The notes beneath the pieces are model-generated. The model did no database searches, was not told where the DNA came from, and worked only from the letters and a program-made list of their open reading frames with translations. From a virus (lineage: Duplodnaviria > Caudoviricetes): a stretch of 53,732 nt of DNA. Shown piece after piece: positions 15,733-38,477 of this stretch (the stretch's first letter is position 1; each line of letters starts with the position of its first letter). Both the position numbers and the translations under genes were made by a program. The stretch is taken from positions 1-53,732 of the IMG/VR virus record IMGVR_UViG_3300017770_000016. One strand, given 5' to 3'.

Positions 15733-16536
15733 ATGAGTAAACTCACGGTTATCAGTCTGGGCGCAGGTGTACAGTCGAGCGTGATGGCGTTGATGGCGGC
15801 GAAGGGTGAGATCACACCCATGCCTGATTACGCGATCTTCGCAGACACACAAGCGGAACCTGATCACATATACGAATGGCTTGACTGGCTAGAAAGCCAG
15901 CTGCCGTTCCCGGTGCTGCGCGTCACACGAGGCAGTCTGTTTGAAGATGTCATGGACCCAAACAACAGAAGCGCATCACCGCCGTTCTTTACCGCATCAC
16001 CAAGTGGGATAGGCGAGGGTATCTTGATGCGTCAATGTACCCGCGACTACAAAGTCACGCCGATCCAACGAAAGCTACGCGAACTGGCAGGCTACAAACC
16101 GCGCCAGCGTATCCCAGCAGACACAGTCGAGCAGTGGATAGGCATCAGCACCGACGAGATACAGAGGATGAAGGACGCGCCAGAGAAATGGTGCAACAAC
16201 CGATGGCCTTTGATCGAAACCCGCATGTCACGGTGGCATTGCCTGCGCTGGATGCGTGACAACGGCTACAACGAACTGCCGCGCAAAAGCGCATGCACGT
16301 TCTGTCCCTATCATGACAACGCAACCTGGCGTGAGATGAAAGCCAATGACCCCAAGTCATGGGAGCAGGCGGTGGCTGTGGACAAACACATACGCGATGA
16401 CTTTCGTGGCACAACAAGCAAGATCTACATACACCGATCACTTGTGCCGCTTGATGAAGCAGACCTGGCTGACCCTGCAGAGGATCAGATTGTGATGGAC
16501 TTTGGTGACGAGTGCGACGGGATGTGCGGGGTATGA
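15733..16536 (+). CDS. PAPS-reductase-like (PP-loop) protein
   Basis: ISLGAGVQSS, IFADTQAE, RQCTRDYK, WIGISTDE, KSACTFCPY and C-terminal ECDGMCGV motifs. Confidence 0.75.
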   Translation: MSKLTVISLGAGVQSSVMALMAAKGEITPMPDYAIFADTQAEPDHIYEWLDWLESQLPFPVLRVTRGSLFEDVMDPNNRSASPPFFTASPSGIGEGILMRQCTRDYKVTPIQRKLRELAGYKPRQRIPADTVEQWIGISTDEIQRMKDAPEKWCNNRWPLIETRMSRWHCLRWMRDNGYNELPRKSACTFCPYHDNATWREMKANDPKSWEQAVAVDKHIRDDFRGTTSKIYIHRSLVPLDEADLADPAEDQIVMDFGDECDGMCGV

Positions 16537-16985
16537 GCAAGCTTTCTGTCACCCCCATCAACTTGGATGAAGCAAACGCCTTTGTGGAGCAGCATCACCG
16601 ACACCATAAGCCGGTGCCTGGTGCAAAGTTCTGTGTAGCTGTGTCAGAGGAAGATGTGGTGCGAGGTGTGGCCATAGTCGGCAGGCCTGTGGCCCGGCAT
16701 CTTGATGATGGCTGGACTCTTGAGGTCAATCGGTGCTGCACAGACGGCACGAGAAACGCTTGCTCGATGCTCTACGCAACAGCGTGGAAAGCTGCGCGAG
16801 CGATGGGATACACAAGCTTGATCACCTACACGCTAGAGTCAGAGGGCGGAGCCAGCTTACGAGGCGCAGGATGGCGGTGTGTTGGCCAGACAAGCACTGC
16901 AAATCGAGGGTGGAATACACCTAGTCGGCCTAGAGTGGACACCCATCCGCTGCAGCAGAAACTCAAGTGGAGCGCAGATGTCTGA
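16533..16985 (+). CDS. XF1762-family (Mom-like GNAT) protein
   Basis: ANAFVEQHHRHH, GVAIVGRPVAR.LDDG.TLEV.R, NACSMLY and ITYTL.SE.GASLRGAGW motifs. Confidence 0.75.
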   Translation: MSKLSVTPINLDEANAFVEQHHRHHKPVPGAKFCVAVSEEDVVRGVAIVGRPVARHLDDGWTLEVNRCCTDGTRNACSMLYATAWKAARAMGYTSLITYTLESEGGASLRGAGWRCVGQTSTANRGWNTPSRPRVDTHPLQQKLKWSADV

Positions 16986-18010
16986 TGTGGATTGTACCAA
17001 AGAACTACCAACCGTCCTCAGTCTCTGCACTGGATACGGTGGCATCGAGCGAGGACTTGAGCTTGCCGGGTTTGAACATCGAACAGTCGCTCATGTGGAG
17101 ATCGAAGCCTTCGCCGCTGCGAACTTGGTTGCAAAGATGGAAACGGGACAGCTGGTTCCAGCACCTATCTGGTCGGATCTTAAAACCCTGCCAGCACACT
17201 GCTTTCGAGACAGAGTTGATGTCCTCACTGGCGGCTATCCCTGCCAGCCGTTTAGCGCCGCTGGGCTGCGCAAAGGAGCCGAAGACCCCAGACACCTATG
17301 GCCATACATCTACGACCACATACGAACAATTAGACCTGTTCGCTGCTTCTTTGAGAACGTCGAAGGACACATCAGCCTTGGACTCAGAGAGGTCATCGAT
17401 GATCTGGAAGGACTTGGTTACGCAACGACGTGGGGAATATTCAGCGCGGCTGAAGTTGGCGCACCTCATCAGAGAAAACGGGTCTACATTCTGGCCGACG
17501 CCAGTGGCGCAGGACGACAACAAATCACCAGAGGCTCACATGAGGATGAAGCAGCGCATGAAGGGCGGGCCTCGACACAAACCCACATCGCTGCAGGTGA
17601 TGGTGAAGGGCGTGGAGCGGGGGCTCTGGCCAACACCGACAGCGCAAGACAATAACCAAGTGAGTGGCAACCCAGATCACCCGAAGCGCGGCACAACGCT
17701 GGGCGGGGCAGCGAGACTCTGGCCAACACCGACAGCCAGCGACAGCGAGGGCGGGCCGAGACAGCAGGATGGCAAGCGGGGCAGGGCGCTGAAGGATTTG
17801 CCGCAACAAATGTGGCCGACGCCAACGGCCAACGAAGACGCGGCGGGCACGCCGAACGGCAACATGCAGAAGATGCTGGGCAATCACCCGGCGGTACGGG
17901 GCACGACGCCAGCGGAGTGGTCAGCTGGGCAACTGAACCCGACGTGGGTCGAGTGGTTAATGGGGCTGCCTTTAGGGTGGACAGACTTAGGCTCTTGGGG
18001 AACGGAGTAG
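16985..18010 (+). CDS. Alternative-frame MTase partner polypeptide with 4 WPTP repeats and a motif IX-like segment
   Basis: 341 codons open in the +1 frame over the MTase; F/L/MWPTP x4; LNPTWVEWLMGLPLGWT. Confidence 0.7.
   Translation: MWIVPKNYQPSSVSALDTVASSEDLSLPGLNIEQSLMWRSKPSPLRTWLQRWKRDSWFQHLSGRILKPCQHTAFETELMSSLAAIPASRLAPLGCAKEPKTPDTYGHTSTTTYEQLDLFAASLRTSKDTSALDSERSSMIWKDLVTQRRGEYSARLKLAHLIRENGSTFWPTPVAQDDNKSPEAHMRMKQRMKGGPRHKPTSLQVMVKGVERGLWPTPTAQDNNQVSGNPDHPKRGTTLGGAARLWPTPTASDSEGGPRQQDGKRGRALKDLPQQMWPTPTANEDAAGTPNGNMQKMLGNHPAVRGTTPAEWSAGQLNPTWVEWLMGLPLGWTDLGSWGTE
16987..17655 (+). CDS. C5-cytosine DNA methyltransferase, N-terminal catalytic part (motifs I-VIII)
   Basis: SLCTGYGG (I), GGYPCQPFS (IV), FFENVEG (VI), GAPHQRKR (VIII); ends at TAA 17653-17655; alternative start ATG 16978. 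Confidence 0.85.
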   Translation: MDCTKELPTVLSLCTGYGGIERGLELAGFEHRTVAHVEIEAFAAANLVAKMETGQLVPAPIWSDLKTLPAHCFRDRVDVLTGGYPCQPFSAAGLRKGAEDPRHLWPYIYDHIRTIRPVRCFFENVEGHISLGLREVIDDLEGLGYATTWGIFSAAEVGAPHQRKRVYILADASGAGRQQITRGSHEDEAAHEGRASTQTHIAAGDGEGRGAGALANTDSARQ

Positions 18011-18078
18011 TGCCAGATACCGCAGCCAAGGCGTGGATTGTGTTGAATGACCAACTTGCCAAAGAAAATCATGGGTGA
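17812..18078 (+). CDS. C5-MTase C-terminal part (motif X)
   Basis: RVDRLRLLGNGVVP; same frame as 16987-17655, separated from it by a single TAA. Confidence 0.6.
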   Translation: MADANGQRRRGGHAERQHAEDAGQSPGGTGHDASGVVSWATEPDVGRVVNGAAFRVDRLRLLGNGVVPDTAAKAWIVLNDQLAKENHG

Positions 18079-37898: not shown

Positions 37899-37961
37899 TG
37901 CTGTATAAGTATTCCATCCCTGACAGGCGCATACCGTGCCTGACACTAGCCAAGACAGGAG
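37881..37961 (+). promoter_or_regulatory. Promoter plus structured 5' leader
   Basis: TTGCCC-N17-TATAAG (37881-37909); nested stems CCTG/CAGG and AGGCGC/GTGCCT overlapping the AGGAG RBS. Confidence 0.45.
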
Positions 37962-37967
37962 ATACCC

Positions 37968-38477
37968 ATGGCTAATACAACATTCAACGGCCCAGTCCGA
38001 TCTGAGAATGGATTTAAGTCCATAAGCAAAGACGCAACTAGCGGCGCAATCACTGAAATCACCACTTATGGTGGCGCTCCAGTTAGCCTTTCAGACGGCA
38101 ACGTAACACTAACCAACGCAACTCATAGTGGAAGGATTCTTCTTGTTCCAGACGGTGGTCAAGATAATACTTATACGCTTCCTGCTCCTGTTGCTGGATC
38201 TGTTTTTAAGTTTGTATACGCTGGCGGCGCTGCTGATGCTACGGACGCGCTTATTGTTACTCCCGGCAACACTAATTTTTATATTGGTGGTGTTACTTTC
38301 TTAGATACAGACGGCAACGAAGTTAGTTCAGTATTCTCTGATGGAAACTCCAACAGCAGCATACAGTTGAATGTGCCTGCTGGCTTTGAAGTAACTATTG
38401 TCGGCCTAAACACAACTAACTATCAGATCTTTGGACATGTAACGAGCACTACTGCGCCTGCTTTTGCTGACCAGTAA
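37968..38477 (+). CDS. Virion structural protein (capsid fibre/decoration-like)
   Basis: MANTTFNGPVRSENGF; beta-rich Thr/Gly composition; follows the MCP gene. Confidence 0.65.
   Translation: MANTTFNGPVRSENGFKSISKDATSGAITEITTYGGAPVSLSDGNVTLTNATHSGRILLVPDGGQDNTYTLPAPVAGSVFKFVYAGGAADATDALIVTPGNTNFYIGGVTFLDTDGNEVSSVFSDGNSNSSIQLNVPAGFEVTIVGLNTTNYQIFGHVTSTTAPAFADQ

Follow-up and report, generated by a model that had tools for sequence, protein, structure and literature searches.

The window considered here, the whole 53,732-base stretch of the virus record IMGVR_UViG_3300017770_000016 (Caudoviricetes), is a complete virus record with direct terminal repeats, and reading of its sequence together with the list of its open reading frames (ORFs) revealed two plus-strand frames open over 16978-18078. 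Most likely, these frames represent two completely overlapping genes which jointly make one C5 DNA methyltransferase, and a C-to-T change generating a TAA codon in this lineage disconnects motif X. Frame 1 (coordinates 1 modulo 3) is designated below as alpha, and frame 2 (2 modulo 3, i.e., +1 relative to alpha) as beta. In the proposed mechanism, alpha would provide the catalytic large domain with motifs I-VIII, to which an extended disordered linker ties the motif-X helix. Beta would start two bases before the alpha GTG, using the same ribosome-binding site; its leader would pass through the catalytic region of alpha, followed by the WPTP target-recognition region and a motif-IX-like C-terminus absent from alpha. 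The split would fall at the domain boundary, alpha being the large and beta the small domain, and the polypeptides would associate as in M.EcoHK31I, as the complex model described below suggests. Each frame would be constrained as protein only at its functional module and elsewhere merely kept stop-free; the C-to-T change in the alpha linker, silent in beta, would cut motif X from the catalytic domain.

The catalytic signature of the C5 methyltransferases is found in frame 1, which runs without a stop from 16879 up to the TAA and harbors motifs I (FxGxG-like; LCTGYGG, 17023-17043), IV (PCQ, 17239-17247), VI (ENV, 17353-17361), and VIII (QxRxR; QRKR, 17470-17481). This frame matches Pfam PF00145 (E 2e-31, profile positions 2-163), and its N-terminal piece, referred to as alpha-N, matches phrog_363 at 8.7e-54. 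The piece downstream of the TAA (alpha-C), which ends in RVDRLRLLGNGVVP directly before the stop, matches phrog_32758 at 8e-12. Frame 2 is open stop-to-stop over 16967..18010, terminates in LNPTWVEWLMGLPLGWTDLGSWGTE, and matches phrog_1008 (“DNA methyltransferase” in PHROGs) at 2.6e-30. The earlier note on this DNA had placed motifs I-VIII in frame 1 and, after one TAA, motif X up to 18078, and had described 341 open codons in frame 2 with four WPTP repeats and LNPTWVEWLMGLPLGWT; every one of these details is correct.

The affiliation of the pieces can be judged by comparison with a single-chain reference, gp76 of Mycobacterium phage Rita (annotated methylase, 389 residues). In this protein, alpha-N is matched by residues 5-181 (43% identity, 2e-40), the C-terminal half of beta including the modules and the xxEWxMGxPxGW segment by residues 194-351 (31% identity, 2e-9), and alpha-C by residues 359-383 (56% identity, 8e-6). 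Since the window pieces are colinear with Rita gp76, they would together make one C5 methyltransferase, as the earlier note had proposed. The WPTP modules of beta align with the in-frame LLPTP modules of the reference, and LNPTWVEWLMGLPLGWT aligns with its LAPAFSEWMMGWPAGWV segment directly ahead of motif X, so the placement of motif IX in beta and of motifs I-VIII and X in alpha fits by position and pattern. In Rita gp76, Pfam covers only motifs I-VIII and leaves the C-terminal segment unnamed; an ESM Atlas search with residues 170-341 of beta returned unnamed viral clusters only. The recognition region and motif IX do not reside in the chain carrying motifs I-VIII: the homologous modules lie in frame 2, and the stretch of frame 1 that links motif VIII to motif X is of low complexity and predicted to be disordered.

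The two frames are also maintained in relatives. A scan of viral contigs yielded 80 loci 62-96% identical to the N-terminal piece of alpha; the relatives span ca. 76-95% nucleotide identity and 48-58% guanine plus cytosine (GC). Openness was counted in 70 complete viral contigs or, together with five GenBank phages, in 75 sequences. Frame 1 is unbroken from the start to motif X in every locus not truncated by a contig end, and in the same loci frame 2 is open from its start, or earlier, to about 60 nucleotides (nt) before the alpha stop, its tail always taking the form LNPxWVEWLMG(L/V)PxGWTxLGSWxTE. A second ORF in the other frame inside the alpha gene, i.e., the feature typical of M.EcoHK31I, is conserved among these relatives. 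The number of WPTP-type modules varies among them from 0 to 6.

The null expectation for openness was obtained by shuffling synonymous codons within each gene, so that the protein and the codon usage were preserved. Over the first 167 codons of alpha, frame 2 has no stops in 70/70 viral contigs, as compared with 1.2-4.5 stops in the shuffles (mean probability of no stop 0.017). In the middle zone, frame 1 has no stops in 75/75 sequences, as compared with 0.85-13 stops after shuffling of the beta codons (mean probability 0.027). The five GenBank phages, which are more distant, display 1-5 frame-2 stops near the gene start, hence their beta begins within alpha. The 27 remaining long ORFs of the window, serving as a control, contain 1.9-7.9 +1-frame stops per 100 codons, matching their own synonymous shuffles; the second frame of the methyltransferase locus has one stop in 347 codons. 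The earlier note had singled out the homologs as the place to see whether frame 2 stays open over the same DNA, and it does so in all complete viral contigs. A database search with beta retrieved at least 6937 proteins (clusters at 90% identity) at E<=1e-3 among the 8000 candidates scored; none of the 120 matches listed bears a Pfam domain, and the few named ones are termed hypothetical. Gene callers often pick the beta frame.

Another conserved trait is the shared start site. The sequence NTGTGGAT begins the gene in 80/80 sequences, the frame-2 start being ATG in 64, GTG in 12, and TTG in 4 of them (locus L052, whose match begins at query residue 9, was left out of this census), and the frame-1 GTG follows two bases after the frame-2 start in all 80. 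Thus, the observation that both frames can start within one ATGTGG (ATG 16985 / GTG 16987), made previously in the window alone, extends to the whole set. That GTG is the sole possible alpha start in 30/80 sequences; an additional alpha ATG is located within 30 nt upstream in 24/80, including the window, where ATG 16978 is an alpha start candidate to be added to the GTG 16987 listed before. A Shine-Dalgarno-like tetramer is present 4-16 nt ahead of the frame-2 start in 71/80. In the window and in loci L005-L009, the TGA of the upstream gene shares its A with the beta ATG; the resulting TGATG stop-start overlap is the usual arrangement for coupling. The ATGTGG at 16985-16990 is repeated at 17810-17815, where it represents the Met-Trp of the fourth WPTP module.

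The distribution of constraint was measured from pairwise alignments of the window with its relatives, the middle zone being defined as 17500-17960, where the alignments of 15 loci cover 150 bases or more. In this zone, residue differences amount to 516/1568 in frame 1 vs. 188/1554 in frame 2, and 407/669 base differences sit at the third codon position of frame 2. In L010, e.g., 21 of the 25 changes in the middle fall at this position, altering 2/108 residues of beta and 22/109 of alpha. In the N-terminal zone (80 loci), 2047/12756 residues differ in frame 1 and 3905/12730 in frame 2. The diversity profile reproduced the same frame switch and revealed a return of frame-1 constraint over the last 90 bases. 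Overall, three zones are discernible, constrained in alpha, in beta, and again in alpha, with the other frame kept stop-free throughout. At the fourfold-degenerate sites of the alpha N-terminal zone, divergence is below that of the neighboring genes in 9/10 loci (L029 being the exception), which would be expected if these sites double as second positions in the codons of another translated frame; for the two pairs of highest divergence in this test, mosaicism may be the reason instead.

Structure models were obtained for the separate chains and for their complex. Alpha of L005 (380 residues, 50-row alignment), the closest relative in which this chain is intact, was modeled with a folded domain at residues 1-173, a stretch at 191-347 that has a predicted local distance difference test score (pLDDT) <50 and is devoid of secondary structure, and a helix at 346-379; by this model, the middle of frame 1 has the look of a tether rather than of a domain for recognition. 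The co-folding suggested by the earlier note was carried out with three chains, i.e., alpha-N (residues 1-176), the motif-X piece, and beta, and it returned scores of 0.90, 0.89, and 0.90, the best of three controls reaching 0.07. Between runs, 65% or more of the contacts are shared, and the partner pLDDT is 61. In the modeled interface, residues 314-340 of beta contact the motif-X piece, the last WPTP module being also included, and residues 1-9, 34-40, 57-85, and 141-163 of beta contact alpha-N. The complex model supports a putative binding of alpha and beta; it may be guided by single-chain methyltransferase structures, though no solved chain resembles beta by sequence.

At the site of the TAA, CAA in alpha and AAC in beta are found in 18/18 loci aligned across it, and the TAA is unique to this lineage among the aligned relatives: it separates motif X from motifs I-VIII in the window, and both reside on one chain in all 75 relatives. 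The stretch is present in at least 20 runs from 11 studies, with at least half of its words found in 17. Contigs of four runs from four studies (2017, 2019, 2023, and 2025) span 17653 and all carry the T of the window, so the T is real and fixed in this lineage, with the reservation that one of the four runs may be the own source of the window and that contigs hide rare variants. The claim of the earlier note that T17653 is genuine and silent in frame 2 (AAT, Asn) therefore holds, and a sequencing or assembly error at this position is ruled out. The sole difference of the four run contigs from the window is at 17449, where the window has G and all four have T (Ala to Ser in alpha, silent in beta). 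A 30-base word around the TAA had no exact matches in viral contigs and metagenome contigs, collections from which records of the genome of the window itself may be missing. Reassignment of the stop codon or a phage suppressor tRNA was dropped as an explanation, since an ARAGORN scan over all of the 53.7 kb genome yielded neither a tRNA nor a tmRNA gene. Because all relatives keep alpha unbroken, the tether to motif X that is lost through the TAA seemingly was a selected feature, and the odds are slightly in favor of this change lowering or abolishing methylation.

Several points weigh against the two-gene reading. The label “motif IX” is attached to the beta C-terminus by its position and pattern, with no profile naming it; the beta profile gave only one, chance-level match in Pfam (0.14) and no matches to solved structures at E up to 10. 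Modeled alone, beta reached a pLDDT of 49.6 and a predicted template modeling score of 0.26. The score of the complex is attained by 58/80 solved complexes and 2/110 mismatched pairs in a benchmark, but these counts are only a rough guide, the job having used its own alignments and three chains, unlike the calibration. The N-terminal leader of beta changes twice as fast as alpha does there and may be a spacer only. The relatives share ancestry, so the 70 and 75 sequences are non-independent trials, and the products of alpha and beta are known from the DNA sequence alone. A frameshift fusion would likewise be compatible with the colinearity with Rita gp76 and with the position of the first WPTP directly next to motif VIII. 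Finally, that the TAA lineage persisted in samples from 2017 to 2025 fits a functional enzyme in three pieces and also a dispensable gene.

The first of these two possibilities is the strongest of the alternatives, though on balance a rather doubtful one: alpha-N, beta, and an 88-residue motif-X peptide initiated separately at GTG 17812, the earliest canonical in-frame start of the alpha C-terminal piece, would together form a functional enzyme. The TAA lineage has remained unchanged in the contigs of the four runs, frame 1 remains open beyond the TAA, and the model sets a separate motif-X chain against alpha-N and beta; moreover, split C5 methyltransferases can complement, as exemplified by M.AquI and by fragment complementation in the accessible text of PMC3404938. 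On the other hand, the chains would be positioned alike by the model for an intact alpha, and a broken alpha occurs in 0/75 relatives. Frame 1 offers no canonical start between 17656 and 17812, and the Shine-Dalgarno-like AAGGA at 17794-17798 is poorly spaced, 13 nt from GTG 17812. The four assemblies are nearly identical to the window, hence the allele may be very young, and its persistence says little about long-term selection.

Far less probable is a single polypeptide produced via two programmed frameshifts, in which motifs I-VIII would be read in frame 1, a +1 shift would lead into frame 2, and a -1 shift back to motif X, so that the TAA would never be met; such a route would explain the tolerance of this codon. 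The three pieces lie in order on the single-chain Rita gp76, and the first WPTP overlaps the codons directly after motif VIII, where Rita has LATPSD. However, neither the openness of frame 1 through the middle (75/75) nor that of frame 2 through the N-terminal zone (70/70) is needed for this route, the frame-2 start is conserved in 80/80 sequences, and the TAA allele is unique. Reading of the sequence revealed no X XXY YYZ or known +1 site at either junction, and the motif-IX-like codons overlap those for RVDRLR of alpha, so one chain cannot hold both complete. We know of no precedent for two frameshifts in one gene. A -1 slip at the G run 17997-18000 joining beta to motif X was considered as well and dropped, the run not being conserved and WET being as frequent as WGT in relatives. 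The frameshift-assembled enzyme entertained in the earlier note is, therefore, disfavored.

It is hardly credible that frame 2 goes untranslated and only shadows a single-chain methyltransferase gene, its openness being due to composition or codon bias, in what is now a pseudogene: beta does lack a Pfam family and a solved relative and folds poorly alone, and open shadow frames are frequent in GC-rich actinophage genes, but frame 2 is the conserved one in the middle zone with base changes concentrated at its wobble position, frame 1 is predicted to be disordered there, codon-usage-preserving shuffles yield stops, frame 2 is open over 460 codons in a phage with 48% GC, and the homologous modules stand in the main frame of Rita gp76.

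The two-gene reading has a close parallel among the known enzymes. According to the accessible text of PMC3404938, C5 methyltransferases are two-domain proteins, the large domain containing motifs I-VIII along with motif X, the small one the variable region and motif IX; only M.AquI and M.EcoHK31I are named in that part of the 2012 paper as consisting of two polypeptides. M.EcoHK31I of E. coli (recognizing YGGCCR) needs both polypeptides, and the small one, beta, is encoded wholly in another frame within the gene of the large one, alpha, as stated in the available parts of PMC2836561 and PMC3404938. The comparison with this enzyme drawn in the earlier note is apt with regard to the second frame inside the main gene. 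Judged by the published description, as far as accessible, there are also differences: the overlap in the window spans the whole gene (341 of ca. 365 alpha codons) and is represented in M.EcoHK31I by an internal 176-codon ORF. Both starts in the window share a single ATGTGG and the ribosome-binding site ahead of it. The recognition region seems to lie in beta here, not in alpha, and the window contains an orphan phage gene beside DNA-modification genes, whereas M.EcoHK31I belongs to a restriction-modification system. The multispecific phage C5 methyltransferases of the SPR / phi3T type, which carry tandem recognition domains in one chain, one target each, may bear a likeness to the modular region as well.

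In the case of M.AquI, the two genes are reportedly consecutive, not overlapping. Like the window enzyme, it is naturally split into two polypeptides within the variable region, but its small subunit holds motifs IX and X (accessible text of PMC3404938), whereas motif X stays in the catalytic frame of the window and the genes overlap fully.

The layout of the window recurs in the distant phages C75C1, ESSI2_ev129 (of E. coli), AeroV_348, ABMM1, and phiBtTUL1a (of Burkholderia), the frame 2 of 460 open codons in a phage with 48% GC being mentioned above. In phiBtTUL1a (L087 1204-2112), GenBank annotates the frame-2 product only, as “DNA repair protein”, and the overlapping 457-codon frame with methyltransferase motifs lacks annotation. 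Pairs in Paenibacillus larvae phages (e.g., gp49/gp50 of Diva) possess the same modules and C-terminus as the window, and the second frame of Diva is annotated in GenBank as “g49 internal gene”; Diva differs in that its beta starts about 60 codons inside alpha. The accessible part of the Diva genome paper (PMC6070908) does not discuss this second frame. Rita gp76 shares with the window the catalytic domain (at the identity given above), the xPTP modules, the xxEWxMGxPxGW segment, and motif X, but has all these elements in one frame. In Rita (L089 1376-1837), a 153-codon +1 ORF overlaps the single-chain gene and encodes a TSG...WK leader and two more LPTP modules; located directly upstream of the modules in the main frame, these give the impression that the recognition region has partly switched frames. 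Intermediate forms occur in Baddon and Darolandstone, with modules in the +1 frame and the motif-IX-like segment and motif X in the main frame.

The features of the locus are collected in Table 1. Ahead of the methyltransferase (window 15733-16985) stand a gene resembling PAPS reductase (phrog_424, 1.4e-47) and the Mom-like gene, the locus thus representing a DNA-modification gene cluster. The Mom-like gene is present in L010, which resembles the window, and is absent from L005-L009, where it is the PAPS-reductase-like gene that terminates in the same GTCTGATGTGGAT junction. At the DNA level, the WPTP modules form direct repeats as well (17492-17839; 27-36 nt, 67-81% identical), and T17653 is the final base of the second repeat copy. 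On the minus strand, a 192-codon ORF (17484-18062) is open across the module region, being probably a by-product of a stretch avoiding stops in two plus-strand frames. The Rfam scan found no RNA element at the methyltransferase locus; the single match in the genome was Mu-gpT-DE RNA at 37918-37970 (+), with 72.1 bits and E 6.7e-15.

Table 1. Elements of the overlapping methyltransferase locus and its upstream neighbor in the window.
Feature	Position	Strand	Remarks
Upstream Mom-like DNA modification gene	16512..16985	+	phrog_1384 5.9e-44; PF25680 5.8e-6, just under the Pfam cut-off
GGAG, Shine-Dalgarno-like	16969..16972	+	5 nt ahead of alpha ATG 16978, 12 nt ahead of beta ATG 16985
Alpha N-terminal piece, frame 1	16978..17655	+	Catalytic large-domain motifs I-VIII, then ca. 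50 low-complexity linker codons, TAA end
Beta, frame 2	16985..18010	+	341 codons: leader over the catalytic domain of alpha, four WPTP modules, motif-IX-like C-terminus
ATGTGGAT	16985..16992	+	Holds both start codons, ATG 16985 (beta) and, two bases on, GTG 16987 (alpha)
Four WPTP modules of beta	17492..17824	+	TGG at 17492, 17627, 17720, 17813
TAA in alpha linker	17653..17655	+	T17653 is the third base of frame-2 codon AAT (Asn), silent in beta
Alpha C-terminal piece, frame 1	17656..18078	+	Remaining linker and motif X RLRLLGNGVVP 17983-18015; stop TGA 18076-18078
LNPTWVEWLMGLPLGWT, motif-IX-like segment of beta	17933..17983	+	Final codons overlap RVDR of alpha ahead of motif X

In principle, such an arrangement has been known for one enzyme, and in one group of phages the internal gene is annotated. 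A literature search outside REBASE, subscription journals, and supplements returned no paper on the overlap over the whole gene, on the dual start, on the constraint by zones, or on the breadth of this family. Beyond the window, the evidence tilts toward a very large group of phage C5 methyltransferases composed of two same-direction genes overlapping over ca. 1 kb behind one ribosome-binding site, with the recognition half in the +1 frame of the catalytic half, passenger stretches that are merely stop-free, and modules that are gained, lost, and shifted between frames.

If this is true, heterodimeric C5 methyltransferases would be common rather than two curiosities, and the two-polypeptide form would be widespread in phages, with annotation pipelines usually reporting one frame only; thousands of frame-2 products are filed as hypothetical proteins, and no family is assigned among the 120 matches listed. 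In length, the overlap would rank near the top of the conserved same-strand gene overlaps of prokaryotic viruses, offering to the study of overlapping genes a long and deeply conserved case with a clean division of constraint and a dual start. The single-chain, partly shifted, and fully overlapped forms would then be stages of the gain, loss, and movement of modules between frames, and the swappable WPTP modules may diversify the methylation targets. The TAA lineage would be a natural experiment on motif X supplied in trans. The nonsense change itself is confirmed and means that the enzyme is either dispensable in this phage or tolerant of a further split.

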